From Candidatus Omnitrophota bacterium (GTDB lineage: Bacteria; Hinthialibacterota; Hinthialibacteria; Hinthialibacterales; Hinthialibacteraceae): a stretch of 64,000 nt of DNA. The translations under genes and the position numbers were made by a program. This document shows, piece by piece, positions 4,735-31,599 of this stretch; position 1 is the stretch's first letter, and each line of letters opens with the position of its first letter. The notes beneath the pieces are model-generated. The model was not told where the DNA came from. It saw only the letters and a list, made by a program, of their open reading frames with translations, and did not search any database. The stretch spans positions 23,861 through 87,860 of the forward strand of contig QZKN01000097.1 in assembly GCA_003598175.1 (NCBI GenBank), read 5' to 3'.

Positions 4735-6351
4735 ATGAAATGGGATAATGTGAAACTTCGTAATAAATATGCAATTGCTTTTGGCGTTCAAATCATCCTG
4801 CTCTGTTTTATTGCCGCACTGGCGATCTCGACTGTCAGTCGCATGGCAGTAAACGGAAATCAATTGATACAAAGCCATGATATCGTAAATGAGCTCTCTT
4901 TGAGAGAAATCGAACATTTGGAATGGGCATCTCATGTGCTCGAATTTTTCACCGACGAAAAAGCGTCCTCCGTCGACGTGCAAACCAATCCGGACCAATG
5001 CGTCTTTGGTAAATGGTTGGCCGGTGTGGAGAGAAAACAAGCGGAGCAAACGATTCCGGCGCTTGCCGTTCCTCTTGCCGCCATAGAAAAGGCGCATCGC
5101 GAACTCCACACGTCGGCGGCGGAGATCAATCAATTGGCGCAAAAGGGAGAGAAAACCTCTGCATTGGCGGTTTTTCATGACCGCACAAAACCGGCGTTGC
5201 TCCAAATCCGGGATTTGTTGCGAGCAGCGAGAAACACGGCCGCGCAGGCGTCGGACAAGTCGGAAATGCTTCTGCAGGATCATGCAAGAACCACCAAAAG
5301 CTCTACGTTATACCTGTGCCTGTTGTCGCTCCTGATCGGGATTTCTCTCGCCTATTTTATTTCCAGCGGATTTATTCGAACGATCCATCGCTTGGTCCTT
5401 TTTTCACGGAGTCTCGCCGCCGGAGATCTTTCGCAGTCCATGCCGTGCAATCGTATCGATGAACTGGGGATTCTGGCCAATGCGTTGAACTCGATTCGGG
5501 ACAAATTGCACGACATGATGGATAACATTCAACAGGCCGCCGACCAGATTGCCGCCAGCGCGGAGGAAATGTCTTCCTCGGCCCAAAATCTTGCCGCCGG
5601 CACATCGGAGCAGGCTTCCAGCCTGGAGGAAACTTCCGCCTCCATCCATCAACTGACCGGTTCCATCCAGCAAAACGCCGCTCATGCGCAAAAGACGAGC
5701 GAAGCGACCATGATAGCCGCGTTGGAAGTGGAGGAAGGCGGCGGCTCCGTTCTGGAAATCGTAAAATCGATGAAAAGCATCGCGCAGCAGATTTCCATTA
5801 TCAATGATATTGCCGATCAGACCAACCTGCTTGCTTTAAACGCAGCCATCGAGGCCGCGCGCGCCGGCGAATTGGGAAAAGGATTCGCCGTCGTGGCCGT
5901 GGAAGTGCGCAAATTGGCGGAACGCAGTCAACACGCCGCAAAGGAAATCGGCCAATTGTCGGATAAGAGCGTCAAACAGGCGGAAGCTATCGCAAACTAT
6001 TTAATTGAAAAGGTGGTTCCCGGCGTGCAAAATGCCTCGCAGTTGGTGCAGGAGATCACCTCCACCTGCAACGAACAGTCCAACAGCGCCGAACAAGTGC
6101 AAAGCGCGATCACCCAATTGGATGAAATCACGCAACGCAACTCCGCGACGAGTGAAGAGTCAGCATCGGCCAGCGAAGAATTGGCGGCGCAGGCAAAATC
6201 ACTGCAGGATATCATTCACGGATTTAAGATGAATTCCTCCGGCAACGCGCTGGACGTTCAGGAAGAGCGATCGTGGATGCATGAGAACATGCAGGAGGAT
6301 ATCCCGTTGATGGTTTCGGATTTCACGGAACGTCATTTCCGCAAGCCATGA
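4735..6351 (+). CDS. Methyl-accepting chemotaxis protein with a CZB-like (chemoreceptor zinc-binding) motif in its periplasmic sensor region
   Basis: Domain order is TM1, a roughly 160 aa sensor, TM2, HAMP and the MCP signalling domain ([16 protein letters not shown]...). The sensor contains HLEW, then 28 residues, then CVFGKW, then 32 residues, then HRELH. That is the complete 3His/1Cys CZB signature. Confidence 0.85.
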
Positions 6352-6560
6352 CGGCGCGTGCGCCGACCGTTGCAACAGGCAATGGAGCGTGAGAATTACA
6401 ATTGGCCTGTCAATAAAATCTCTGCTTTCTTCTCCCGCTCTCCCAGCGGTATCAATCCAATCCGCATGTGCAAGGCGGCAGCGATTTTTTGCAGGAGGGG
6501 AAATGGATTCCCTTCATAATCGGTTTCTTCCGGTTGAACGATGATTTCTTCCGGATTCCA

Positions 6561-6977
6561 TTATGGCACGACTTCCAGCGTCGTACCATCACGAAGGCGA
6601 TAGATGCGAAAATCGTTATCCAATGAGAATATATGATGGAACTTGCGACTTTCAGCAACCACCACAAGTGAAGCGTCGGCCAAGTCCATTGGTGTGTCCT
6701 GGTACTGCGCCATCAACTTGTCCATACGATCGATTTCAGCGTACGTATGATCGTGTAGGATTAACCGCCCGTTTGTTCGAAGTCTCCATAGTTCAGTTTG
6801 ATATTGATATCCACCCACCGATCCCAGCAAATACATCGCTTCCGTGAAGCACGGCCATGTTGTCAACATGGGGCCATATGATAGTTGTTTTACCGCGGTG
6901 ACACAAACAGTATGATAAGCATCATCTTTATCCAAAAGCGCAACTACAGGTCCGGTGTCAGTGAGAATCATACTCAT
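6561..6977 (-). CDS. vapC: PIN-domain toxin (VapC family)
   Basis: 138 aa. The N-terminus MILTDTGPVVALLDKDDAYH is PIN-like. It overlaps the upstream small gene by 4 nt. Confidence 0.75.
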   Translation of the reverse strand: MSMILTDTGPVVALLDKDDAYHTVCVTAVKQLSYGPMLTTWPCFTEAMYLLGSVGGYQYQTELWRLRTNGRLILHDHTYAEIDRMDKLMAQYQDTPMDLADASLVVVAESRKFHHIFSLDNDFRIYRLRDGTTLEVVP

Positions 6978-7282
6978 CCTTGTCGCCGTTTTTGGACCAA
7001 CGCAGCAGTGAATTTTTGACCACAGTTTTCAGAAAGGCGCGCACCGCCATGAATATGGTTGCCACTGGAGAGGACGCCAATATGCCCAACAAGAAAATCG
7101 GCAAGTGTTTTCTGCTCCGTTTCCGAAGGATCATCCCCTTTTTTTGTAACAAACCGATTTTGGAGGCAGTCGAGTGCGAGCATCTCCGGTGTTGTCTTTT
7201 GTCTGTTTGCCTCCTCGCACAATGCACTTTCAATAGCGGGAGTTAGCGTGATTTTCATTGGTATTTCCCTTAGTTTATTCAA
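6974..7282 (-). CDS. Putative ribbon-helix-helix antitoxin partner of VapC (VapB-like)
   Basis: Small ORF overlapping the toxin start (ATGA). The core MKITLTPAIESALCEEANRQKTTPEMLALDCLQNRF has beta-strand then helix character. The exact start is uncertain (7258 or 7282). Confidence 0.5.
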   Translation of the reverse strand: MNKLREIPMKITLTPAIESALCEEANRQKTTPEMLALDCLQNRFVTKKGDDPSETEQKTLADFLVGHIGVLSSGNHIHGGARLSENCGQKFTAALVQKRRQG

Positions 7283-7970
7283 TTTCCTTGATTTTAATAT
7301 TCCGGAAAAAAATCGGCGCGCCGGCGTGTTTTCCCTGCAGACCGATTCGTCCGAACGTTTTCAATTCGGCTTTCGGCTTGCTCAACCAGGACGGGATTTC
7401 GCTGCCGTCGGGATTGGTTTTGGCGCTGGTCCATAATTTCATGTCCATGACGGTGACCGTCTCCCCGTTCAGCATCACGTAAATCATGTTGTCCTTGCAG
7501 GTGATGGTGAAACGGTTCCACTCGCCCGGCTTCTTCACCATGCTTTTCTTTGCGGCCAGATGCCCGAAGATGGCGGCGCATTGCCAGGTTTTCGGTTGGC
7601 TCGACCATTTTTCGGAAAAATCGTCGGCGATTTGAATCTCGACCGAATTGGGAATCCAATTTTTCATGTCGCTGCAGTAGACGATGACGCCGCTATTGGT
7701 TCCGTCGGCGGTTTTGAATTCCAGATCCAATACGAAATTGTCATAATCCTTATTACTCCAAATCGCTTCGTCCTTACTGGCCGTGAGAACGCCGTCTTCG
7801 ACCGTCCATACTCCCTTCGGAAACTCCGCATTGGAGAGATCCGCGTTGAACAACGCCTGCCACTCGCCGCTGTCGGGATGCGCTTTCGGCGGAATTTCCA
7901 TCTCGCCGGCTGATGACAATACGGGCAATACAACTCCAATCACTGCGACCAATACAACTAATTTTTTCAT
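7275..7970 (-). CDS. DUF1080 (3-keto-disaccharide hydrolase-like) secreted protein
   Basis: The start at 7970 gives MKKLVVLVAVIGVVLPVLSSAGE, a signal peptide. The body has GVWTVEDGVLT...RIGLQGKHAGAPIFFRNIKIKEI, which is characteristic of DUF1080. Confidence 0.75.
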   Translation of the reverse strand: MKKLVVLVAVIGVVLPVLSSAGEMEIPPKAHPDSGEWQALFNADLSNAEFPKGVWTVEDGVLTASKDEAIWSNKDYDNFVLDLEFKTADGTNSGVIVYCSDMKNWIPNSVEIQIADDFSEKWSSQPKTWQCAAIFGHLAAKKSMVKKPGEWNRFTITCKDNMIYVMLNGETVTVMDMKLWTSAKTNPDGSEIPSWLSKPKAELKTFGRIGLQGKHAGAPIFFRNIKIKEIE

Positions 7971-18887: not shown

Positions 18888-20432
18888 TCAGACGGCATAT
18901 GTTTTTTCACGTTCGGTTCCGGCAATCAGGCGGTTGACGGCATTGAGAAACGCTTTCACGCTGGCGCGCAGGACGTCGGTGTCCGTCCCGCGTCCGATGA
19001 CTTCTCGATCCCCTTTGCGCAGGATGATATTCGCCGATCCCAACGCGTCGGTTCCGGTCGTGACCGCGCCGACGTGATAATCGACCAGTACGGCATCCTC
19101 CATACCCGTCAGTTGCTTGATCACGGAAAAAGCCGCATCCAGTGCGCCCGCGCCCGCCCCGGTCGCCTCCACGATATCGCCATTGGAGCGCAGCCGTACA
19201 TGGGCATTGGGCTTTTGTTGCTTCTCGATGTTGATGCTCAGATCCTCCAGCGAATATTTTCCATAATCAGCAGCGCGGGATTGCTCATCCACGATCGCGA
19301 TGATGTCTTCGTCGAAGACGTTTTTCTTCAAATCCGCCAATTCCTTGAATGAATCGAAGGCTTTTTCCAACGATTCGCCTTCCAGATGGAATCCCAGCTC
19401 TTCCAGGCGTTTGGTAAACGCATGGCGGCCGGAATGCTTGCCCAGCACCATCGAATGGCCGGTCCAGCCGACGGATTGAGGCGACATGATCTCATACGTC
19501 GTCCGCTCCTTCAACATCCCGTCCTGATGAATGCCCGCTTCGTGGGCGAAGGCGTTTGCGCCGACGATGGCCTTGTTCGGCTGCACGCCGATGCCGGTAA
19601 AGCGCGTCAACAGGCGGCTGGTGGGGTAAATCTGTTCGGTGTGAATGTTCGTGTGCACGTCGAAGAAATTCTTTCGCGTTTCGATATTCATCACGATTTC
19701 TTCGAGCGAGGCGTTGCCGGCGCGTTCGCCGATGCCATTGATGGTGCACTCCACCTGCCGCGCGCCGCTGCGAACCGCCGCCAGCGAGTTGGAAACGGCC
19801 AATCCCAAATCGTTGTGGCAATGCACGCTGATGACGGCCTGATGCACATTCTTCACTTTTTCGAAAATGTAAGCGATCAAATCGCCGAATTCCCACGGAT
19901 TTGAATACCCGACCGTGTCGGGTACGTTGATCGTGGCGGCGCCGGCGTCAATCGTCGCTTCGATGACTTCGCAAATGTAATCCCGATCGGTGCGGGCGGC
20001 GTCCTCGGTGGAAAACTCCACGTTTTCGGTGTACCCGCGCGCCCGCTTGACCGCCTTGACGGCGATGTCGCGCACTTCCTTGTTGGTTTTCTTCAATTTC
20101 TTCTCGACGTGAATGTTGCTGGTCGCGATAAAGGTGTGAATGCGCGGCCGGCTGGAATATTGTACTGCTTCCCAGCAGCGGTCGATGTCTTTTTCCATCG
20201 CGCGCGCCAGCCCGCAGATTTGCGGACCCTCAACCTGCTGCGCCACAGCTTTGACCGCCTCGAAATCGCCGGGCGACGAAATGGGAAAGCCCGCTTCGAT
20301 GACGTCCACGCCCAACCGTTTCAATTGAAACGCAAATTCCAGCTTCTCCTGCAGATTCATACTGAATCCGGGGGATTGCTCGCCGTCTCTCAAGGTGGTA
20401 TCGAAAATAATGATTTTTTTATCGTCGTTCAT
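18888..20432 (-). CDS. leuA: 2-isopropylmalate synthase
   Basis: [22 protein letters not shown]... with an HxH metal site, 514 aa including the C-terminal regulatory domain. A citramalate synthase paralogue cannot be excluded. Confidence 0.85.
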
Positions 20433-20649: not shown

Positions 20650-20927
20650 ACCAATAAAAAACCTCGCCCCATGGTTCAGGGGCGAGGTCGGTTTTTCGAT
20701 CCCGCGGTACCACCCTGCTTCAGCGTTCGTTTCCAGGAACGCCCTTGTTTGCGCATGATCACGGTTGCGAACCGGCTTCAACTAGTGATTCGATGTGAAC
20801 GTTCGCGGAAGCGACTCCAAGGCGAGTTCGGCGCTTCGAAATACCGGTTCGCACCACCCACCGGCTCTCTCCGATTTCGAGATGACGCCTACTGCTCCTC
20901 TTCACGGTCTTTGGTGATAAAATTTTA
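20650..20927 (-). ncRNA. T-box riboswitch leader controlling leuA, probably Leu-specific
   Basis: The minus strand shows the canonical T-box sequence AGGGTGGTACCGCGG (20716-20702). Next comes the terminator hairpin GACCTCGCCCC-tgaaccat-GGGGCGAGGT plus TTTTTT (20689-20650). A candidate specifier reads GAA-CUC-G (Leu). The leader is about 270 nt from the predicted transcription start. Confidence 0.6.
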
Positions 20928-20962: not shown

Positions 20963-21379
20963 TGCATGATTTACTCTTTGTGAAAACACGAACATGTATC
21001 CGGCGACTATGTCTCCTTCCCCAACCTATTGATTTACCGGAAAATGCCTTTTAGTCGCTTAGATTGTTACAAGTGAACTACTCCGACTACATCTTGGGTT
21101 TTAGCCTCCGGAGGTCGCTTCTTTGACACATGGACGCTGGGAGTGAGATTTGTAGGGGGGAATATTACGCGTGGAAAAAAGGAGATGCCGCCGATAGTTG
21201 TGGTTCAATATGATGGGTCGGAGGAGATGGAGTTTTGGATGGAAGAATGAAGTCTGAATCGGGAGGGCAGGATGATAAGGATATTCAAGATAAGGTAACG
21301 CCGTGGTCTCGACTTCAGGATGCCGGTAAGAAGCCGGAGGGAAAGTACGAAGCATCACGAAAGAAAGGAGACGGTGAAC

Positions 21380-21673
21380 ATGAAGTACACCGTGATTCTC
21401 ACGGAAGAACAGGGCCGTTTTCAAGCAACGGTTGCCGGATTACCGGATTGTCACGTGAAGGCGAATACACGACTGGATGCGCTCAACACCATTCGTGACG
21501 CAATCAACCGATTGATCGGCCGTAGTGAGATTGTCCAACTCGAGGTGCCAACGAACCCGAAATTCTCGAACCTTCATTCCGATGTTCCCTGGGAATGGTT
21601 TGGGGCTTTTAAAGAAGATCCGACTTGGGAAACATTGTTCGATGACATCGAGCGCCAGCGAAGTACCGATTAA
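21380..21673 (+). CDS. HicB-like (UPF0150 fold) antitoxin with a C-terminal extension
   Basis: MKYTVILTEEQGRFQATVAGLPDCHVKANTRLDALNTIRDAI. It is immediately followed by a PIN toxin gene. Confidence 0.55.
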   Translation: MKYTVILTEEQGRFQATVAGLPDCHVKANTRLDALNTIRDAINRLIGRSEIVQLEVPTNPKFSNLHSDVPWEWFGAFKEDPTWETLFDDIERQRSTD

Positions 21674-21688
21674 ATTGAAAGATCGCAT

Positions 21689-22117
21689 ATGTATCTATGG
21701 GATTCCAACATTTTGAGGCATTATGGGGAGGGACGCCCCCATATTCGACTCTATCTGGAGCATGTGAGTTGGTCTGAAATTGCGATTCCATCCGTTGTGG
21801 TTGCAGAAGTGTTGCGAGGGCGATGTGATTTTGCTCTAAAAGCCACCCCGGCGTTAGCAGTATACGCTCATGAGATGTTGATGAAAACAAAAAAGTTTTT
21901 GGAACAATTTACGATTTGTGTTTTTGATGAAGATTGTTCAAAAGCATTACACGAACGGAAACAACGTCACAAGGCTCATAAGCGTTATGCCGACATGCTT
22001 ATTGCTGCCATGGTGCAAGCGGGAAACCATGTCATTGTTACGCGAAACGTAGAAGATTTTGCCGTGCTATTACCCAAGAATCGAATTATCAATTGGATTG
22101 ATGAAAAACCGAAATGA
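21689..22117 (+). CDS. vapC: PIN-domain toxin (VapC family)
   Basis: MYLWDSNILRHY...VVAEV...IVTRNVEDF. 142 aa. Confidence 0.75.
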   Translation: MYLWDSNILRHYGEGRPHIRLYLEHVSWSEIAIPSVVVAEVLRGRCDFALKATPALAVYAHEMLMKTKKFLEQFTICVFDEDCSKALHERKQRHKAHKRYADMLIAAMVQAGNHVIVTRNVEDFAVLLPKNRIINWIDEKPK

Positions 22118-22231
22118 GTTTTGGAAGCTGAATTAGTTTTGTAGGGTGGGCTCGATTCAGCCTACCATTCGGATTTGGGATACTATGGGTGGGTTACGCT
22201 TCGCTTTGAGCCCATCCTATGCAGCTATAAA

Positions 22232-22429
22232 TTAATCAATCCAACGCCATGTAATATCCCTTATATCATAAATAATAATTCCCATAATAATCAAAGTCAA
22301 AATAAATCCGACCGAATTCACCTCGGAAACAGAAGCATCAGGCTTTTTAAAGCCTAAAACAATCGCAAAAAAAGATAAAACACAAACCAAACGAAAAATC
22401 CGTGGCCGTCTCGACACATATTTATCCAA
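22232..22429 (-). CDS. Small putative membrane protein in an AT-rich segment
   Basis: Hydrophobic segments (LVCVLSFFAIVLG, FILTLIIMGIIIY). The start is non-ATG. The surrounding GC is far below the rest of the window. Confidence 0.25.
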   Translation of the reverse strand: MDKYVSRRPRIFRLVCVLSFFAIVLGFKKPDASVSEVNSVGFILTLIIMGIIIYDIRDITWRWID

Positions 22430-22488
22430 ACGTGCAACTCTATAAATTAATAATCCGATGAATGTAAAAAATAAAGCGCCCGAATTAC

Positions 22489-22665
22489 CTGCTAAACTAA
22501 AAAAAATGAAATAAGAATAAATAATGCAGATATGAAACTTAAGATGTAACGTAATTTGGGGAATTTTGGTTCCGGTTCCAATCCACTATAAAGGTGACGT
22601 CTTTCATATTCCTCTGGTGATTCTTTATGACTATAATAGTTCCCATTTTTTGCTAAATAAGACAT
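22489..22665 (-). CDS. Small ORF (58 aa) with a hydrophobic C-terminus in the AT-rich segment
   Basis: GGAGGTAATC then ATG. Sequence MSYLAKNGNYYSHKESPEEYERRHLYSGLEPEPKFPKLRYILSFISALFILISFFLV. Not in the ORF track because it is under 60 aa. Confidence 0.25.
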
Positions 22666-23067
22666 GATTACCTCCTTTGGGTTCTACTTCCACTGGAAAC
22701 GCTTTACATTTTAAAAAAGCTCGTCCTATGAATGTAGAGTAGATAGAAGTAAAATTCCTTCGTATGAAATAATAACTCTTTGCCGATTTTAGGGAATAAA
22801 CCCAGTGACTAGTATGTACATCAAGATCGTATCTGGCGTCATCCTTTTTTCCTTGCATCTCGCAATGAACGTTCCTCTACTTTAGTGGTCAAGACGTATG
22901 CCGTCAATACGCATGCCGTCAATACGTAGTTATACCCAACGTATAATCGTTGATCAACAATCATACGACATGGAAAAACCCGTTCGGATTCATGCCGAAC
23001 AATTGAAACCCCATTATCACGGAAAAACCCAAAAACCATTCGGTTTTCTCTCGAATGGTAACATGGT

Positions 23068-23172
23068 TGTAGCATGGATTTTTTGATGTTTCCGGAATGA
23101 AGCGTAAGTCTAATGAAATCAAAGTCGGGGTGAGAGGATTTGAACCTCCGGCCCACTGCTCCCAAAGCAGTT
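23068..23172 (-). repeat. att-like repeat: a 48 bp 3' fragment of tRNA-Pro (23125-23172) plus a conserved 55 bp flank, called module A here
   Basis: Positions 23125-23172 are identical to 31526-31573, which is the tRNA from its 3' end through the anticodon stem. Positions 23068-23122 nearly match 31057-31112, and the 3' part recurs at 31504-31525. Confidence 0.8.
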
Positions 23173-23353
23173 TACCCCCCCTACATATGGTATCACGGAT
23201 TAACACGGTTAAACGTAAATCCCTCATTTTATTCATTCTTTACTTGCATGGTCTACTTTACAAGCATCATGATATACCATATACTGTGTTGACTTGGTGT
23301 TGACTTGAGAGGGTATGGCGACAAATATCTCAAGTTTCATAGGAGGCGACGGC

Positions 23354-24571
23354 ATGAGTAAAGCGGCACGAAAACGTTTGCGGTTGACGAAGTCGATTAT
23401 CGACAAATTGGAGTATCCGGCGTTGCAATCGGGAAATCCGGATGTTCCGATTTACCCGTCATGCATTTATTGGGATACGGAAATCCGTTCCTTCGCCGTC
23501 CGTGTTTTCCCATCCGGCAAAAAATCCTACATTCTCGATTATCGCTGCAGAGGGCGGCATCGGCGGATGACGATAGGTTCATGTTCGGTTTTGACTCTCC
23601 ACCAAGCTCGAGAACGGGTAAGAAAACTGATGATTCAAATTTTAGACGGGGTTGATCCCTTGGAAGTCCGGGAATCACAGCGGAAGGTTTTGACCGTTAC
23701 GGAATTTTCGAATTTATTCATCGAACGGTACGCAAAGAAGTTTCGAAAATCATGGAAGGAAGACGCGCGGAGGCTCCATAAACACGTTATTCCGGCGTTC
23801 GGCTCGATCAGGCTTGATGCTCTGCAACGCGGCGACATATCGGCGTTTCATGCGGAAATCGGTGAATCATCCCCGGTTGAAGCGAATCGGGTAACGGAAC
23901 TTTTCCGGCGCATGTTTCACGTCGCGATGGAATGGGGATATTTGCCGTCCACGTTCGAGAATCCGGCGAAGGGCGTCAAAAAGTTTCCGGAAAAATCGCG
24001 GGAACGTGTGTTGACGGAAGAGGAAATCATCGCAATCGGGCAGGCGTTGATCGAAGAACAGAATGTTTATGCGCGAACGGCGATCACGCTTGCACTGCAC
24101 TTGGGTAACCGTATCGGAGAAATCCTCAAAGCGAAGTGGCGGGATGTGAATCTGAAAAATCGAACCTGGCTGTTTCCGGATACGAAAAGCGGCAAACAGC
24201 ACACTTTGCCGTTGACGGAGGAAACCGTGGGGCTACTCGAAAGCATACCCCGTGATTCATCAACAAAGGAAATTTTTCCGATCAAGAGCGTTCGCAAGGC
24301 ATGGGAGAGAATACGAAAAAAAACCGGATTGGAGAATATTCGCATTCACGATTTAAGGCGTTCGGCGGCAAGCATGATGGTGGACGATGGAATCTCGCTG
24401 CACATCGTGTCCAAGGTTCTGAACCATTCGAGTTTATCGATAACCAGCGGGGTTTATGCGCATGTCGGGATGGATCCGGTTGAAGACGCCTTACAAAAAC
24501 ATTCGAAGAAAATCGTTTCTTTGTTTCAACCGGCAACCGATGAAACAGGCGGTAAGGAAAACGTTTCTTGA
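23354..24571 (+). CDS. int: Tyrosine-type site-specific integrase
   Basis: An AGGAGG RBS sits before the ATG at 23354. The catalytic region has ...RIHDLRRSAASMM...H...Y in the C-terminal part. It is adjacent to the partial tRNA copy. Confidence 0.85.
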   Translation: MSKAARKRLRLTKSIIDKLEYPALQSGNPDVPIYPSCIYWDTEIRSFAVRVFPSGKKSYILDYRCRGRHRRMTIGSCSVLTLHQARERVRKLMIQILDGVDPLEVRESQRKVLTVTEFSNLFIERYAKKFRKSWKEDARRLHKHVIPAFGSIRLDALQRGDISAFHAEIGESSPVEANRVTELFRRMFHVAMEWGYLPSTFENPAKGVKKFPEKSRERVLTEEEIIAIGQALIEEQNVYARTAITLALHLGNRIGEILKAKWRDVNLKNRTWLFPDTKSGKQHTLPLTEETVGLLESIPRDSSTKEIFPIKSVRKAWERIRKKTGLENIRIHDLRRSAASMMVDDGISLHIVSKVLNHSSLSITSGVYAHVGMDPVEDALQKHSKKIVSLFQPATDETGGKENVS

Positions 24572-24612
24572 TGAAATGACCAGGAAAAAAGAAAGGAAGG
24601 AAGGAAGGAATC

Positions 24613-24963
24613 ATGGAAAAAACAATGTCACAAGCGGAAATCGAACGGCTGTTTGCCGATGAACCGGCGGGCGCAACGGCGGTGATGGATGACTTTCCGG
24701 ATGGAATCCGGGCGGCGGTCACGGGCGCGAAGGAATCGGCGACGGTCACGGCGGCGGCGGCAATCCCAGAAATCCTGAAAATCTTGTCGACCGTTGACGG
24801 GAAATTTCATCCGTCAATTTTCGCGGCGGTCACGGCGATTCAACGCACAGCGGCAGGCGATAGCGTCACGGCAATCGGCGATCAATTGAATGAACTTGCT
24901 TCCCGGCGATCACGGGAAACAAGGGCGAACGGCAAGCAAAGGCGGCGATGGTGGGGAAGGTGA
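24613..24963 (+). CDS. Hypothetical protein (116 aa) in the int-alpA interval
   Basis: An Ala/Thr-rich protein ending in a basic tail RRSRETRANGKQRRRWWGR. Polypurine RBS. No known domain. Confidence 0.45.
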   Translation: MEKTMSQAEIERLFADEPAGATAVMDDFPDGIRAAVTGAKESATVTAAAAIPEILKILSTVDGKFHPSIFAAVTAIQRTAAGDSVTAIGDQLNELASRRSRETRANGKQRRRWWGR

Positions 24964-24994
24964 AAAATCCCCTCAACGCCAAAAGGATGAAACC

Positions 24995-25867
24995 ATGTCC
25001 CGAAAAAAAAAGGTAACCGACTTGCCAACTTGCCGATGCGAAGAAAAAATCATTTGGGATGACGGCAAAGGAAACCAGAGGTTTGAATGCAGTTATTCAA
25101 CCGATATAAGATTCTCTCAAAAGGTCAAAAACCAATTGATCCTACATGCCGGAATGGGCGCATATGAGGCGGAAAAGTTTTTAAACGATTATCCGAAACG
25201 AAGCAAAAACATGTTAAAATGCGTCAAAGGAAATCTTGATGATTATCACCTGCATTGGGCAAAAATTCGGGATGAACAAATTGAGGCAAGAGACAAATTG
25301 CAGAAAGCGGATGTGGAATTTTCATCAGCGAACAGGCCGTTTTTGTGTAACCAATATTCACTATGTTATGATCCTTCGGATGACGGCGATTTCATGAAAC
25401 AGTTTGCCGAAAAGCGAAACGCGATTGTAGCCTGTCACGGGGAAGTGGCCAAATTATTCACTGAACCTTTTTTAGATTTGGGAAAAATCGGATTATCATT
25501 GATCGATTCAATTCAAGCAGAACAGGATTTTTTGCAATACTTCAACAATCGGCGCGTGCAGCAACTGACCAAAGACTTACAAGGCCGACCTTCCAAAGGC
25601 GACGTAAACATCACACTAAAAAACCTGGCGCAAACATTCATACAATTCCACCAATGGAAAAAAAATAGAAAATGCAAGAAAGCGATTCGTGAGCATTGCG
25701 TTCGATTCGTTGCCGTTGCACTTGCAGCGGCAATGATCGAAGTTCCCGAATCAGGAAATATTGCGGAAAGTCACGCACTGCCAAATGCTCACGATAACCG
25801 TCTTGTTAAACGAATTTCATCCGCATACGACTTCATTCAACGAACCCCCAAACCCCTCTCAAAGTAA
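24995..25867 (+). CDS. Hypothetical protein (290 aa) in the int-alpA interval
   Basis: AAGGA RBS. The N-terminal Cys cluster is CRCEEK...FEC. No recognisable domain. The longer ORF 24890.. in the track was rejected as the start. Confidence 0.5.
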   Translation: MSRKKKVTDLPTCRCEEKIIWDDGKGNQRFECSYSTDIRFSQKVKNQLILHAGMGAYEAEKFLNDYPKRSKNMLKCVKGNLDDYHLHWAKIRDEQIEARDKLQKADVEFSSANRPFLCNQYSLCYDPSDDGDFMKQFAEKRNAIVACHGEVAKLFTEPFLDLGKIGLSLIDSIQAEQDFLQYFNNRRVQQLTKDLQGRPSKGDVNITLKNLAQTFIQFHQWKKNRKCKKAIREHCVRFVAVALAAAMIEVPESGNIAESHALPNAHDNRLVKRISSAYDFIQRTPKPLSK

Positions 25868-26011
25868 AAAAAATCATCTTTTTTACCCGTTGTAACTCCT
25901 TGATTTCATTGGAGAACGCAAAAAGTCACGTCAAAAAAGAGGCGACTTTTTGCGCAGGCGGGAAAAAGGTTCTGTGACAATCCATCTTAAAAAAGAAAGC
26001 GAGCTTCAACA

Positions 26012-26269
26012 ATGGATTATCACGAAATGATTAACGTTCCGCTCCACTTGGATCCCGATGCTTTGCTCAGCGAAAGGCAAGCGGCGGAGTTTCTTGGTTT
26101 CACAATTCGAGCGCTTCAATCCTGGAGGCAAAAAGGCAACGGTCCGAAATTCGTCAAAATTTCGGCAAGGGCGATTAAATATAGGCGGCGGGATTTGGTT
26201 GAATGGTGCGAGGGAAAAATTCGAAAATCCACATCCGATAGCGGCGGCGCGGGGGGGGATGAATCATGA
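26012..26269 (+). CDS. alpA: AlpA/Xis-like HTH (HTH_17) excisionase or regulator
   Basis: LLSERQAAEFLGFTIRALQSWRQKGNGPKFVKISARAIKYRRRDLVEW. Its stop overlaps the next gene (ATGA). Confidence 0.7.
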   Translation: MDYHEMINVPLHLDPDALLSERQAAEFLGFTIRALQSWRQKGNGPKFVKISARAIKYRRRDLVEWCEGKIRKSTSDSGGAGGDES

Positions 26270-27975
26270 GCACGGCGCTTGCGGTGAAGTTTAATCCAGA
26301 CTTCGAGCGGCAAATTCTTTCTTCAATCCTTTATGATCCGTCAAACGTCGAACGCTGTGGCGCTTTGTGCGGAGCGGATTTTTGCAATAAGACATTGGGA
26401 AAAATTTACCAGGCGGCTTGCGATATTTATCGAGACGGCGGCATCGTAGATGATAGTCTTATCATTGATAGATGTGGGGACGTGCACATAAATAAAGCTT
26501 CATTGTATGCGCTTCGCGACGAATATGTAACCGATTCCAATCTCGATTTTTGGGTTTCGCAAGTACAGGATTACGGCAGGCGGCTGGCGATAGGTAAATT
26601 ATTTGAGTCGGCGGCGAAGCGCATTGAACAAGCGGAAAATCTATCTGATTTCACGACAGATGTTATCGGAAAATTGCAGGCAATCAGCGGCGTAAATCCA
26701 ACAGATTCGACGGAAAAAACCGCCTGGCCGGAACCGTTGCCGCCAGAGGCTTACATTGGATTACTTGGTGAAATAACCAAATTCATAGAACCGGAAACCG
26801 AAGCGGATCCGGCGGGGATTTTGGCTCAACTGTTGGTAGTGTTTGGTAACGCAATTGGAAGGAATCCGTATTTTTTCGTGGAATCGGATTTCCATTACGC
26901 AAACGAATTTTTATGCTTAGTCGGTGAGACGTCAACGGCGGGGAAAGGCACTTCTTGGGGGTATATTCGGCGATTGTTTAAGGACGCGCTGCCCGACTAT
27001 TTTAAAAACAGAGTTGAGCCTGGTCTGAGCAGCGGTGAGGGGCTAATTCACAAGGTTCGAGATGCAACCGAAGTAGCGGGCGAAATCACGGATCCGGGAA
27101 TGGCTGACAAACGGTTGCTTGTGACAGAGGGGGAATTTGCATCACTCTTGCAGGCGATGAACCGGCCCGGAAATCGAGTTTCCACGATTATAAGAGAAGC
27201 CTGGGATTACGGGGATTTGGGGACGATGACTCGAAACAATCCTCAAAGGGCGACGGGCGCGCACATAAGCATTATCACGCATATCACATTTGAGGAGTTA
27301 AGAAAAACTTTTAAGGAGACGGACTGTCTTAACGGTTTCGGTAACCGTTTTTTGTGGGTTTGTGTAAAAAGGCAGAGATGCCTTCCGGAAGGCGGCAACG
27401 TTGATTTTTCGCGGCGTCAACAATACATTGAAAAGTTGCAACGTGCGGTAGAATTTGCGCAAGGACATTCGGCTGAGGTGCCTTTTGACATTCATGCGCG
27501 TGAACTTTGGCATGCAATCTATCCAAAACTTACGCAGGCGCGAGCGGGACTATCGGGCGCGATGTTGGCGCGATCTGCCCCCCACGTTCGCCGCCTGGCG
27601 CTGATTTATGCCTTGAGTGATTTCTCTTCCGTTGTTGAGGAAAAGCATTTGCAAGCATCACTAGAATTTTGGGAATATGTCGAACAATCGGTTGAATATA
27701 TTTTTGGCGATCATTACGGCAACCGAACCGCGGAAAAAATCATCAACGCACTTCGAGATAGTCCCGAAGGCCTAAGCGAAACGGCAATTTCGCGAGACGT
27801 CTTCGGCGGGAATAAAAATTACACAGAAATCAATCATGCGATAGAATCATTAAAAGCGGCTGGTAAAATTCGAACAGAAAAAAGAAGAACAAGCGAACGT
27901 GGGCGGGCGGCAACTATCGTTTTACGCTCGGATAGGTGTACGAAAGAAACGAAAGAAACGAAAGAAATGAAATAA
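26266..27975 (+). CDS. Replication protein: DnaB-helicase N-terminal-like domain fused to a DUF3987 primase-associated domain
   Basis: An N-terminal DnaB-N-like region (ILSSILYDP...LGKIYQAACDIY) and a central DUF3987-like region (YFFVESDFHYANEFLCLVGETSTAGKGTSWGY). The C-terminal TKETKETKEMK comes from a 9 bp tandem repeat at 27940-27972. Confidence 0.7.
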   Translation: MSTALAVKFNPDFERQILSSILYDPSNVERCGALCGADFCNKTLGKIYQAACDIYRDGGIVDDSLIIDRCGDVHINKASLYALRDEYVTDSNLDFWVSQVQDYGRRLAIGKLFESAAKRIEQAENLSDFTTDVIGKLQAISGVNPTDSTEKTAWPEPLPPEAYIGLLGEITKFIEPETEADPAGILAQLLVVFGNAIGRNPYFFVESDFHYANEFLCLVGETSTAGKGTSWGYIRRLFKDALPDYFKNRVEPGLSSGEGLIHKVRDATEVAGEITDPGMADKRLLVTEGEFASLLQAMNRPGNRVSTIIREAWDYGDLGTMTRNNPQRATGAHISIITHITFEELRKTFKETDCLNGFGNRFLWVCVKRQRCLPEGGNVDFSRRQQYIEKLQRAVEFAQGHSAEVPFDIHARELWHAIYPKLTQARAGLSGAMLARSAPHVRRLALIYALSDFSSVVEEKHLQASLEFWEYVEQSVEYIFGDHYGNRTAEKIINALRDSPEGLSETAISRDVFGGNKNYTEINHAIESLKAAGKIRTEKRRTSERGRAATIVLRSDRCTKETKETKEMK

Positions 27976-27987
27976 GGGTGTTGTTTT

Positions 27988-28398
27988 TTGAACAGATGGG
28001 GAATTAATTCGTTTCTTTCGTTTAATTCGTACCATGCGGAGGGAAAAATGAGCGGGAAATATTTTGCTTTGGCAAAGGAAACGCTTGAAAGAATAAGAGC
28101 GAATGAATCGAAACTTATTCATTCGAATGATTCGGTTATTCAACTGCAACCGGCGACGCGGGTTTATCCGAAACCTGAACCGTTCATCCCGCCATTCTAT
28201 GGCCGTGTGCGAGACCGTAGGGCGAAGGAATTGATCGATTCCGGCATTGAACCGGCGGCGGCGAAGGAACAGGCGCAAACGGAAATCATCGACTTTTATG
28301 AAAAGATTCAACGCGGGGAAACAATTAAATCGATTCATTGGTACCCGGCAAATGAGGCCGGGCTTGTTCTTTGCATTCCGGAAAGGGCGAAGAAATGA
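27988..28398 (+). CDS. Hypothetical protein (element cargo)
   Basis: ORF downstream of the primase gene. The likely true start is the internal MSGKYFALAKE. No domain recognised. Confidence 0.4.
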   Translation: MNRWGINSFLSFNSYHAEGKMSGKYFALAKETLERIRANESKLIHSNDSVIQLQPATRVYPKPEPFIPPFYGRVRDRRAKELIDSGIEPAAAKEQAQTEIIDFYEKIQRGETIKSIHWYPANEAGLVLCIPERAKK

Positions 28399-28427
28399 CG
28401 GAAAATGTAACGTTTTGGGACACTTAA

Positions 28428-28670
28428 ATGCAAAACAGTGAAGGACTTAAACAACAGGATACCCCGGTAGGCCGGTTAAACTCGATTTCAGCCGTTCGCA
28501 AAGAGATGGTTCGCGTTTATCGCGGCACAGTTTCCGGAAAAATCGAAGCGGAACGGGCGACAAAATTGATATGGATTCTCTGTCAGGTTCGCGATTCCAT
28601 TGAACTTGAGGCTGTTGAACCGGCAATCGAACGGCTGGAAAAACTGTTGACTGAAGGCCGATCAAGATAA
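28428..28670 (+). CDS. Hypothetical small protein (80 aa, element cargo)
   Basis: Tightly spaced in a three-gene series. No domain recognised. Confidence 0.4.
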   Translation: MQNSEGLKQQDTPVGRLNSISAVRKEMVRVYRGTVSGKIEAERATKLIWILCQVRDSIELEAVEPAIERLEKLLTEGRSR

Positions 28671-28681
28671 AGGCGGGAATC

Positions 28682-29050
28682 ATGCGAGCAATTTTACGGC
28701 GGATCTTAAAAATCGAATCATGTTTAGCGAAGCGAACGCAACCGAAGGATGATGGCGCAGCGAAGAAAAAACTTCTTGAAGTGGCGCAGCAAAAAATCGA
28801 GATACTTTGCAAGTTGCATGAGGATGGTGTTGCGATTAACCCCCGGCGGGAATCCTTCGCAACCCTCATGCTTCACTTCCTTGCGTTCACAGTGGAATCC
28901 ATCCCGGAAACCATCAAGGATGAAGTCAATCGGCGATTACAGAACCGTGGCGCGGAGCCGATCAATTTCAAAACCATCGACAATGAAACGGCGTTTTTGT
29001 CGATGGTTAGAAAATGGATTGCAACGCAATCTATGGCGGCGGTTAAATAA
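28682..29050 (+). CDS. Hypothetical small protein (122 aa, element cargo)
   Basis: Begins 12 nt after the previous gene. No domain recognised. Confidence 0.4.
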   Translation: MRAILRRILKIESCLAKRTQPKDDGAAKKKLLEVAQQKIEILCKLHEDGVAINPRRESFATLMLHFLAFTVESIPETIKDEVNRRLQNRGAEPINFKTIDNETAFLSMVRKWIATQSMAAVK

Positions 29051-29091: not shown

Positions 29092-30597
29092 TCATTCATG
29101 AAATCGCCATTGGTTTACAGCGGTATCGTCTGGATCGAATTCACGAATAAGTCGAAAGCCAATCCCTTGCCTGATTTGATCTGAATCGGAATGTTCCCAA
29201 AAATATCCAAAATCTATATTATGCAATGGTGATGTTGCGCTTTCTCCACAAATCGTGTATGGACGATCAGAAAAATATGGCCAGTAGTTGGAATCATTAT
29301 CAGTATTGAAACACCATTCTGAAACGTTCCCCCATGTATCAAATAAGTTCCAAGGATTTGGTAACTTGGTTCCAACTTCATGCAAATAGAAATCTGAATG
29401 AAGCCAAGCATACGCTTCAATTGGTAAATTGTTGATATTAAAAGAATCATCGAAAAAAAATTTGGTTGTTAGAGTGTTTTGAACAGGCACACCTCCACGA
29501 AAAGCATACTCCCATTCCTCTATTGTTGGTAAACGAAATTTACCCAATCCTAAAACATTCAAACGAGTTATAAATTCAAAACACATTTTTCTGCTTACAT
29601 TATAAACAGGATAATTATCTTTTATACCATAAATTGCTACTAAATTCTCTGGTATAAAATCAATTTCTTGTTTATTAAATATTGTTTTCCATTGAGCAAA
29701 AGTAACTTCATATTTGCCTATGTAATAGTCATTTGGTATAGATATCAATATTTCATTCAAATTTGACCTACTTCCTGTCATTCGAGTAAAAGTTCCAGCA
29801 TGAATCAATACCATCTCAAGCGGCGATACTCCATACGGAAGGCCGGGAAGAGCAATCGTTATTTCTTTATGTGGACGTAGGGCGATATTTAATTCCTCAG
29901 TGGTTGGATTTGTCAAGATTTTATTTTTTTGAAAGTAGCCATCTTTATAAATAGACAAAATGTGATCACCATGTAATATTCTCAATGAGAACGATCCTGA
30001 AGAATCAGTCATGGTCGAAATTCCCGTTCGCAGTATTTCGACTTTTGCATTTTTAATCGGTTCATAAGTTTTGTAATTATAAACGATTCCATATACAAAG
30101 CCGGGAGTCGGAGTTATTGTGGGAGTATGGCTTGGGGTATAGGTCATCGTCGGTGTGAATGTATTTGTCGGAGTTCGAGTCGGAGTAGGTGCTCTCGTAT
30201 TGGACGGCGTTATCGTTAGTGTTGGAGTTCGTGTCGGAGTTGCAGTATTCGTTGAAGTTGGTATTATTTCTGGAATTTGTAATGGAATCATACGAATATT
30301 CAATTCAATATTCTCATTTATTTCTTTGGTTGACTCAAACGTTCGATATCCATCAGCTTCAACCTTTATCACATACGTTCCAGGCAACGGCAATCCAATT
30401 TCATAAAATCCATCTGTCGCGCTTTGAATGGTAATGTCTCCAACTGTTATCAGAGCACCATAGACGGGAATGTCATTGAATAAGGAAAGGACTCTTCCAG
30501 AAATAACGATGTCAGCGGAAGTTTGATTGATAATCACGGTAAATAGTAGTGGGAAGAACGCTGTATTTTTCATCAATTGGTTACTTTCCTTTATCAA
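29092..30597 (-). CDS. Secreted protein with two carboxypeptidase-regulatory-like domains, a Pro/Thr-rich linker and a C-terminal FGE/SUMF1 (sulfatase-modifying-factor) domain
   Basis: Signal peptide. GRVLSLFNDIPVYGALITVGD and GIVYNYKTYEPIKNAKVEIL look like CarbopepD_reg domains. The linker is TPTRTPTLTITPSNTRAPTPTRTPTNTFTPT. The FGE-like region has RLPTIEEWEYAFRGG. Confidence 0.65.
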   Translation of the reverse strand: MIKESNQLMKNTAFFPLLFTVIINQTSADIVISGRVLSLFNDIPVYGALITVGDITIQSATDGFYEIGLPLPGTYVIKVEADGYRTFESTKEINENIELNIRMIPLQIPEIIPTSTNTATPTRTPTLTITPSNTRAPTPTRTPTNTFTPTMTYTPSHTPTITPTPGFVYGIVYNYKTYEPIKNAKVEILRTGISTMTDSSGSFSLRILHGDHILSIYKDGYFQKNKILTNPTTEELNIALRPHKEITIALPGLPYGVSPLEMVLIHAGTFTRMTGSRSNLNEILISIPNDYYIGKYEVTFAQWKTIFNKQEIDFIPENLVAIYGIKDNYPVYNVSRKMCFEFITRLNVLGLGKFRLPTIEEWEYAFRGGVPVQNTLTTKFFFDDSFNINNLPIEAYAWLHSDFYLHEVGTKLPNPWNLFDTWGNVSEWCFNTDNDSNYWPYFSDRPYTICGESATSPLHNIDFGYFWEHSDSDQIRQGIGFRLIREFDPDDTAVNQWRFHE

Positions 30598-31056
30598 TAA
30601 TATTACTCAATCGCTTCCTGTCATGAATAACAAAAAAACGAATATCTGATGGTAAATTAAAATGATTCGCCATATAGGGGAGAGTTCTAAAAGGCCGTGG
30701 GGAAAGAAAATCCGAATCAATTCAAGAGGTCGAATTTCATGTTACGGGGAAGAGTTGCCGACGGTGGACGTACCGTTTGTCAGGCGTTCCTTTACGTTCG
30801 GCGGTTCGTATCGGATACCCGGTGGTGAGACTTTTCCAAGTCAAGCAATATAAAGCACGTCTCCCCGCAAAGGGCAGGCGTGAAAACCTGTTCCCTCGAC
30901 GTGTGGCCATGGGAAAAAAAACATGCCTTAGAATCGATTTGCGATTTAATTTTCTCGTAATAAAATGAGTGATTGAAGATTGCGTTCGGCGGGCCGAACT
31001 TCGCGGCGGCGATTGGTCCGAAAACCTGCCTTTTTTCTCTCTGTTGGTAGCACTGT

Positions 31057-31135
31057 GGTAGCATGGATTTTTTTGATGTTTTCGGAATGAAGCGTAAGTC
31101 TAATGAAATCAATGTGTGTTGAGATGGACTCGAAC
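31057..31135 (-). repeat. Internal att-like module: a second copy of flank module A plus a 24 bp tRNA-3'-end-like fragment
   Basis: Positions 31057-31112 nearly match 23068-23122. The next 24 bp read on the minus strand as GGTTCGAGTCCATCTCAACACACA (a T-loop and acceptor-like end), but no full cloverleaf can be drawn. Confidence 0.5.
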
Positions 31136-31525
31136 CAATGACCCTCTGATAGATTATCAGAGGGCATACGTTTTGACGACCGACGACGCGGCGACCGGGT
31201 TGACAAGATGGGGCGGCGTTTCATCCTTCCATCGACCGGCGGCAGGAAAAAACATCAAACAGCAGGAAACAGCCTTCGTTTTTGTTCCCCGTGCATACTC
31301 AACGCATACTTGAGAAAACCCCGGCGTTCGTAAGTCTAAATATTCGAGGATGTTAAAAAATAAGGCGATTTGATAGGCAATCAGACGACATGAAAAAACC
31401 CGTTCGGATTCGTGGATATTAGATCAATAATCCGAAAATCGGCTCTTTTTTTTGGTGTTGACTTGGTGTTGACTTGAGAAAATCCGTTAAAAATCGAAGG
31501 AAACGTAAGTCTAATGAAATCAAAG

Positions 31526-31599
31526 TCGGGGTGAGAGGATTTGAACCTCCGGCCCACTGCTCCCAAAGCAGTTGCGCTACCAGGCTGCGCTACACCCCG
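31526..31599 (-). tRNA. tRNA-Pro (anticodon TGG)
   Basis: The minus-strand sense reads CGGGGTG-TA-GCGC-AGCCTGGTA-GCGC-A-ACTGC-TTTGGGA-GCAGT-GGGCC-GGAGG-TTCAAAT-CCTCT-CACCCCG-A. All four stems pair, the anticodon loop is TT-TGG-GA, and the length is 74 nt without an encoded CCA. Confidence 0.85.

Follow-up and report, generated by a model that had tools for sequence, protein, structure and literature searches.

The two genes under study, ORF116 and ORF290, lie in an 8.4 kb element of a Candidatus Omnitrophota MAG whose borders are formed by a direct repeat of 78 nt at a tRNA-Pro gene. All positions given here are those of the window, the whole stretch of 64,000 nucleotides that was analysed. 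The tRNA-Pro(TGG) gene was located by ARAGORN on the minus strand at 31525–31599 (Rfam, 67 bits), and the proximal copy of the repeat (31496–31573) comprises the 3' 48 nt of this gene and 30 nt downstream. The distal, att-type copy of the same segment (23095–23172) is identical to it at 76 of 78 positions, and Rfam reports a partial tRNA match at 23125–23181 (31.6 bits). The two copies enclose, in this order, the integrase gene (int), ORF116, ORF290, a helix-turn-helix (HTH) gene, a replicase gene, three small ORFans and a gene on the opposite strand. The integrase (23315–24571, plus strand) is a tyrosine integrase with an arm-binding domain (Phage_integrase 1.2e-27, Arm-DNA-bind_3 1.1e-13, phrog_1 9.2e-66). 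Just 5' of int, a tandem pair of the 11-mer GTGTTGACTTG (23286–23307, plus strand) represents a candidate arm-type integrase site, and a consensus scan identified a promoter-like TTTACA-17-TATACT at 23257–23285. A second GTGTTGACTTG pair (31455–31476, plus strand) lies 19 nt from the tRNA-proximal repeat. The 11-mer occurs four times in the window against 0.57 expected, twice at each end of the element and nowhere else, and the pairs would fit arm-type sites flanking the attP core of an integrase with an arm-binding domain.

ORF290 is followed by a 144-nt gap containing an inverted repeat with 16-nt arms (25917–25954), and the RNA fold of 25860–26015 gave a z-score of -3.15; the repeat may act as a terminator or operator that divides the int and alpA-rep blocks. 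Its half-site was rejected as an operator motif, as no further copy was found in the element. The next gene (26012–26269, plus strand) encodes an AlpA-like HTH_17 regulator or excisionase of 85 aa (HTH_17 1.7e-06, 28.6 bits with a cut-off of 27; phrog_66, 'excisionase and transcriptional regulator', 8.3e-08), for which the Phage_AlpA match was sub-threshold (13.3 bits, cut-off 21). The replication protein encoded downstream (rep, 26266–27975, plus strand) has 569 aa, with a DnaB N-terminal domain and a DUF3987-type core (Pfam DnaB 8e-08; PHROG helicase/primase families); according to Pfam, DnaB_N is present and a primase domain absent. There are 4195 homologues of the replicase, many with PF13148, the nearest sharing ~50% identity with the query across 70% of its length. 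Directly after rep, inverted arrays of the 9-mer ACGAAAGAA (27938–28032; five copies against 0.11 expected; DNA fold z-score -5.6) represent a candidate origin or iterons. The three small ORFans (136 or 116 aa, 80 aa and 122 aa; 27988–29050, plus strand) are co-directional with rep and had neither a family match nor relatives in 128 loci. Inside the element borders there is also a gene on the minus strand (29092–30597, GC 36%) encoding a CarboxypepD_reg and FGE-sulfatase protein. Pfam and PHROG matches within the element were confined to the integrase, the HTH protein, the replicase and the FGE-sulfatase protein. In a codon log-odds model trained on host genes, the element genes scored 0.0–0.06, as against 0.27–0.38 for the flanking host genes leuA and dsbH. 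The tyrosine integrase, the tRNA 3' end, the direct repeats and the non-host composition are those of a tRNA-integrated element or genomic island.

Both genes lie on the plus strand between the integrase gene and the AlpA-like gene, ORF116 at 24613–24963 (116 aa) and ORF290 at 24995–25867 (290 aa), with coordinates, strand and flanking genes as given in the original prediction; the tight spacing it had described was also found, although the gap measured 31 nt and not 30. A purine-rich ribosome-binding region with an (AAGG)5.5 run is situated immediately 5' of ORF116, and the Shine–Dalgarno-like sequence AAGGA lies 7 nt before the ATG at 24995. An ATG at 24890 also opens the ORF290 frame, resulting in a product of 325 aa and a 74-nt overlap with ORF116, and is not preceded by such a sequence. 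The public annotation used for comparison (contig JAGUZP010000155.1 of the Candidatus Omnitrophota MAG GCA_020060745.1) contains two genes, ORF290 being annotated with 290 aa there as well. Shuffling the window 20 times never produced an open frame of 290 codons. A shuffled window contained ~23 stop-free runs of 116 codons or more, so that the length of ORF116 is by itself insignificant and gives no ground for accepting it as a gene. By codon log-odds, the annotated frame was the best-scoring one for both ORF116 (0.025) and ORF290 (0.000), with the remaining frames at -0.11 to -0.50; the other element genes scored 0.016–0.064, and alpA -0.05. A 3-periodic Markov model gave 0.017 for ORF116, 0.005 for ORF290 and -0.108 to 0.133 for chunks of island genes; for shadow ORFs the mean was -0.113 and the 95th percentile 0.004. 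The score of ORF116 is above this percentile and inside the range of the other island genes, and its five alternative frames (-0.25 to -0.32) are far below its own. Both genes share the coding signature of the element's remaining genes. Judged on these signals, ORF290 is very likely a real gene and ORF116 is probably one.

We considered whether the annotation is misleading, in that ORF116 might not be a gene, ORF116 and ORF290 might be a single gene interrupted within 24890–24963 by a +1 frameshift, whether real, programmed or due to faulty assembly, or ORF290 might start at 24890. The abundance of stop-free runs in the shuffled windows is compatible with this, as is the overlap at 24889–24960, which favours the ORF290 frame (+0.062) over the ORF116 frame (-0.243), whereas ORF116 outside the overlap scores +0.085. 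The extension of the ORF290 frame upstream of 24995 would moreover encode a Gly/Lys/Glu-rich, linker-like peptide. However, the frame switch rests on 24 codons only and is noisy, the ribosome-binding signals lie before ORF116 and before the ATG at 24995 but not before the ATG at 24890, the score of ORF116 over its full length exceeds that of 95% of shadow ORFs, and the public annotation has two genes. An artefact of annotation appears improbable.

The claim that the close spacing indicates a two-gene unit was not supported. At 31 nt, the gap of the pair does not stand out as tight within the operon: int and ORF116 are 41 nt apart, alpA overlaps rep by 4 nt, and the next ORF follows rep after 12 nt. 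GC content differs within the pair (58% versus 42%; GC3 0.61 versus 0.42), which speaks against joint acquisition. Recurrence of the pair in independent genomic contexts was not found, both proteins being without a homologue in the databases searched, and its absence from every other mobile-element context searched counts against the module that had been proposed. Because neither gene recurs anywhere, co-occurrence cannot be shown, and ORF116 and ORF290 are not demonstrably a co-inherited pair. With regard to transcription, a scan of the plus strand from 23315 to 25867 found no terminator-like site. Together with the structured 144-nt gap after ORF290, this suggests that int, ORF116 and ORF290 form the likeliest transcription unit, separate from alpA-rep, as far as consensus scans can indicate.

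The statement that neither protein has a recognisable domain was confirmed. There was no match for ORF116 or ORF290 in Pfam (even at E<=10), PHROGs, NCBIfam or PADLOC, and searches of PDB sequences at E<=10 returned noise only (~11 bits). In a word-indexed search of 5.8 billion clusters each of the two matched itself alone, and an exhaustive phmmer search with ORF290 against 1.84 billion representatives likewise recovered only the query. Searches by tblastn with both ORFs gave nothing in about 123–128 loci (80 genomic and 43 IMG/VR loci with replicase relatives), in INPHARED phages or in PLSDB plasmids. When the two were compared by BLASTP and hhalign with proteins in the same slot of relatives, every probability was <2%. 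An integrase scan of metagenome contigs for sister elements yielded only one 24%-identical fragment. On the basis of these searches, ORF116 and ORF290 are classed as lineage-restricted ORFans with no relative in any database searched. A scan of IMG/VR with ORF116 pointed to two contigs with a 926-aa phage protein that has no PHROG family and shares the 8-mer AIPEILKI with ORF116; its N-terminus aligned to ORF116 with 33.5 bits, 30% identity and 19% gaps. As this match had been pre-selected by the exact shared word, and 33.5 bits is insignificant at the scale of the collection by our own estimate, it was taken as chance and rejected as a relative.

The composition of the two proteins was as the original prediction had described. 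ORF116 contains 18% Ala and 8.6% Thr, is acidic at its N-terminus and rich in Arg in its C-terminal tail, and carries a net charge of +6 in its last 29 residues. ORF290 has a pI of 9.15, a patch with a charge of +8 and a putative Cys hairpin near its N-terminus, with Cys13, Cys15 and Cys32 forming the CxC...C cluster. The sequence GCGGTCACGGCG, present three times inside ORF116, was rejected as a set of iterons, with 11 copies in the window against 7.9 expected; a repeated A-V-T-A peptide accounts for its recurrence. Sequence analysis identified no hydrophobic or membrane segment in either protein, and neither an HTH or other DNA-binding domain nor an enzymatic or membrane effector domain was detected in them. 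AlphaFold2 was run on the single sequences, no alignment being available, and the models of ORF116 and ORF290 (pLDDT 35.9 and 50.6) were unusable; DSSP applied to these low-confidence models assigned mostly helix to both proteins. Foldseek searches against PDB and BFVD gave no match at E<=0.001, the TM-scores for ORF290 being ~0.2 or less and treated as meaningless. Both products appear to be soluble and to have basic patches, and they are predicted, with low confidence, to be largely helical. Their reading as non-enzymatic is based on HMM searches that found nothing and on the two models (pLDDT 36 and 51), which leave room for a novel catalytic fold.

The position of the pair was compared with that of genes in distant relatives of the element. 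Among 80 genomic loci sampled, eight (L017, L024, L027, L033, L037, L049, L051 and L064) have an integrase gene upstream of and co-directional with the replicase gene. The integrases and replicases of these loci are homologous among themselves, and the proteins encoded in the interval from int to the HTH gene or rep are mutually unrelated and also unlike ORF116 and ORF290. Pfam identified a Gp49 (HigB-like) and HTH_37 toxin–antitoxin pair in the interval of L017 and an ORF6N/Rha-type regulator in that of L049. Primase-type domains adjoin the replicase in three loci (Prim-Pol in L033, a CHC2 zinc finger in L027 and a sub-threshold CHC2 in L024), and the other interval proteins (87–394 aa) had no Pfam domain above threshold. 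The interval from int to the HTH gene appears from these loci to be a variable accessory slot in a very widespread family of elements with DUF3987 replicases, as the original prediction had supposed in treating it as a site of non-core cargo, and this agrees with the accessory genes that PICIs carry between integrase and regulator (PMC10085698). No recognised defence system was identified in the slot, either in the element or in the eight relatives sampled: PADLOC matched none of the ten domain-less interval proteins from the relatives, and a search of all nine element proteins against PADLOC-DB 2.0 at E<=0.1 had no match.

These results bear on the proposal that ORF116 and ORF290 together constitute a new module of two genes against phages or helpers in a satellite hotspot, in which one protein would sense infection and the other would execute exclusion or abortive infection. 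The location is where PICIs carry accessory genes (PMC10085698) and resembles the int-proximal hotspot of P4, in which many validated systems started as unannotated genes (PMC9122126). The slot varies across relatives, one of which has a toxin–antitoxin pair in it, and the expression with int suggested above would make the pair active in the integrated state. Against this, the pair had no PADLOC, Pfam or PHROG match, nor had the slot proteins of relatives in PADLOC; the lack of an effector domain, a membrane segment or a known defence signature makes a self-contained sensor–effector system unlikely. In addition, the pair was not found elsewhere in the databases and loci searched, which prevents co-occurrence from being shown, its GC contents argue against joint acquisition, and the element is not established as a satellite. 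We regard such a defence pair as unlikely.

The satellite status of the element was assessed with the scheme of SatelliteFinder, in which P4-like satellites have seven core components and PICIs five, Types A and B needing four of the five. From the P4-like set the integrase was recovered (on the Phage_integrase match given above). Three of the five PICI core functions, integrase, regulator and primase-replicase, are present and co-directional. The remaining ORFs of the element had no PHROGs or Pfam match to TerS or capsid-morphogenesis genes, no Pfam or PHROG match to Psu, Delta or Sid was found among its ORFs, and neither epsilon nor an identifiable cos was found in it. The scheme would place the element with 'Type C PICI', a class that the authors of SatelliteFinder left out as unreliable and possibly comprising other mobile elements, and its status as a satellite is unproven. 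The P4-like or PICI-like identity originally assigned to the element is not supported, given also its Omnitrophota host. In IMG/VR the replicase has relatives on small contigs as well as on viral contigs of 30–60 kb, and it is therefore no guide to satellite status.

The hijack genes of P4 are normally part of a helper-induced late unit and do not lie behind int. Proteins of this kind would be analogues, by position, of P4 Psu, Delta and Sid or of SaPI interference proteins, that is, fast-evolving, non-enzymatic proteins that bind capsid or regulatory proteins of a helper phage. ORF116 and ORF290 share with them a location between int and alpA, the place of psu-delta-sid in P4-like elements, and are small to medium-sized, predicted helical and domain-less; rapid divergence would account for their ORFan status, and replicase relatives are found in viral contigs of IMG/VR. 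However, the pair sits behind int, the element has no detectable terS, cos or capsid gene and no known helper phage, and the two proteins show no PHROG or Pfam similarity, which covers any Psu, Sid and Delta models in those libraries. Homology to Psu/Delta/Sid-like proteins or to repressors had been named as evidence that would contradict a defence role, and none was found in Pfam or PHROGs. Helper exploitation by the pair seems to us quite doubtful.

Taken together, ORF116 and ORF290 are best explained as real ORFan cargo whose function is not assigned by homology, and which most likely encodes soluble, basic binding proteins and shares a transcript with int. Since no enzymatic domain and no membrane segment were found and both proteins have basic patches, binding of nucleic acid or of a partner protein is the most likely activity. 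We give a probability of about 0.4 to the more specific reading that they are element-specific binding proteins expressed with int that act on nucleic acid or a partner and do not form a self-contained defence system. According to this reading, the two genes would occupy the variable accessory slot of the tRNA-Pro-integrated Omnitrophota element and would be transcribed with int, in the integrated state, from the promoter region adjoining the att site, with the structured intergenic region setting the int-ORF116-ORF290 block apart from the alpA-rep block. The products would bind nucleic acid or a partner protein, and their role would probably be either element-specific control, by silencing alpA-rep or by modulating excision, or interference with a phage or host factor. 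Omnitrophota is, to our knowledge, a phylum without described satellites. We consider it very unlikely that the element is a genuine Omnitrophota phage satellite in which ORF116 and ORF290 represent a new non-enzymatic anti-phage or helper-hijacking module without a relative in current sequence space.

If the pair did represent a new mechanism of defence or hijacking, satellite biology would reach an uncultured phylum of ultra-small cells, and an effector type without a known domain would be added. An int-adjacent 'hotspot' position combined with missing annotation does not, however, constitute evidence of defence. In small environmental integrative elements, orphan genes are usual, and ORF116 and ORF290 are for now ordinary orphan cargo. 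The analysis has also delimited the element cleanly, with its att core, arm-type repeats and candidate origin, and has indicated that the slot from int to the HTH gene is variable across a widespread family of elements with DUF3987 replicases.

Among regulators of known elements, Stl of the SaPIs is a medium-sized, extremely divergent, element-specific master repressor encoded next to int, which controls the replication module by DNA binding and is released by a helper protein. Its gene is transcribed divergently from str-xis-rep, and Stl has a recognisable HTH. ORF290 resembles Stl in position, size and divergence, but differs in being co-directional with alpA-rep and in having no detectable HTH. 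The element as a whole resembles the PICIs of Gram-negative bacteria in the co-directional order of int, accessory genes, AlpA-like HTH gene and replicase gene, and in being small (8.4 kb), integrated at a tRNA gene and flanked by direct repeats. It differs from them in that no TerS or capsid-morphogenesis gene was detected and Phage_AlpA was below threshold, and also in its host phylum, Omnitrophota, more than 99.9% of known PICIs being found in Proteobacteria or Firmicutes (SatelliteFinder paper). With P4-like satellites the element shares an int-adjacent slot with element-specific genes, and in both a regulator gene of the AlpA type precedes the replication gene. Unlike P4, it is without psu, delta, sid, epsilon and an identifiable cos, and its replicase is of the DnaB_N/DUF3987 type and not P4 alpha. 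The defence hotspot of P4 is situated between psu and int, beside cos (Rousset et al. 2022, PMC9122126). The slot contains no known defence system in the element or in the eight sampled relatives. Marine VEIMEs, small integrative elements from the environment that are defined by their physical recovery from virus particles as concatemers, encode a tyrosine integrase, an AlpA-type regulator and a primase/helicase, lack capsid genes and have many genes for which databases contain no homologue (PMC9618062). The element, known here from its genes, resembles VEIMEs by description, and they provide its closest descriptive parallel.

The two ORFan genes flagged by the original prediction, ORF116 (24613-24963, + strand) and ORF290 (24995-25867, + strand), have open frames that overlap by 74 nt (24889-24963), and here the coding score, compared over just 24 codons, favours the ORF290 frame (+0.062) over that of ORF116 (-0.243). 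This switch could indicate that the reading frame shifts by +1, that one gene has been split, or that ORF290 starts further upstream. ORF116 contains three copies of the motif GCGGTCACGG(C/G) in 120 nt (24715-24837), specifying a recurring A-V-T-A/G peptide; counted over the whole window, the motif showed no excess over chance. The scan with ORF116 also led to a 926-aa phage protein without a PHROG family (L130, a 72-kb IMG/VR contig, 4947-7727), the N-terminus of which has the word AIPEILKI in common with ORF116 and is 30% identical to it over ~90 residues. This was judged a chance match, once pre-selection by the exact word was allowed for.

Across the end of the replicase gene (DnaB_N/DUF3987-type, 26266-27975), the 9-mer ACGAAAGAA is repeated ~3.7 times (27938-28032), accompanied by inverted copies at a distance of 30-45 nt and a DNA hairpin over the same interval (z=-5.6). 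This array is a candidate replication origin or set of iterons. In many relatives, the gene directly 3' of that for the replicase encodes a protein of ~90-130 aa starting with MSYLE, MSYLD or MDYLE (locus coordinates: L083, 11749-12099; L030, 2867-3229; L027, 11428-11718; L064, 5465-5851; L042, 10832-11101). The counterpart in the window (28048-28398), read from the ATG at 28048 that is also the start in the public annotation, has the N-terminus MSGKYFALAKE; its likeness to these proteins is a by-eye judgement only, and BLAST gave no significant similarity. Further downstream, and still within the element borders, a gene on the opposite strand (29092-30597, - strand) encodes 501 aa, in which two CarboxypepD_reg domains and one FGE-sulfatase domain are recognised. 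Its GC content is 36%, compared with ~47% for the remaining element, and it is cargo of more conventional look than the ORF116/ORF290 pair.

To the left of the element, a 2-isopropylmalate synthase-like gene (18888-20432) is preceded by a T-box leader (20675-20914, - strand; Rfam RF00230, 110.8 bits). Nearer the element, the interval 21320-23094 holds an ORF, 117 aa long in our ORF list and 97 aa as publicly annotated, and after it a 142-aa protein that matches PIN weakly; together these look like a VapBC-type pair. A stretch of 37.5% GC follows, containing a terminator-like repeat (22950-22994) with 87% identity to 31370-31414 within the element. This may be what is left of a related insertion of greater age.

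The flank downstream of the tRNA has a third copy, in degenerate form, at 31018-31165 (77% to 23029-23084), in which the 78-nt core repeat is matched exactly over its first 28 nt. Next comes a tRNA-like 3' fragment of a different sequence that includes a 10-bp hairpin and for which neither ARAGORN nor Rfam made a call. The region may be a relic att site from another element. The 11-mer GTGTTGACTTG is present as identical tandem pairs at 23286-23307 and 31455-31476, restricted to the element's two inner ends (four copies observed, 0.57 expected). These pairs flank the core repeat and look like the arm-type integrase sites of an attP.
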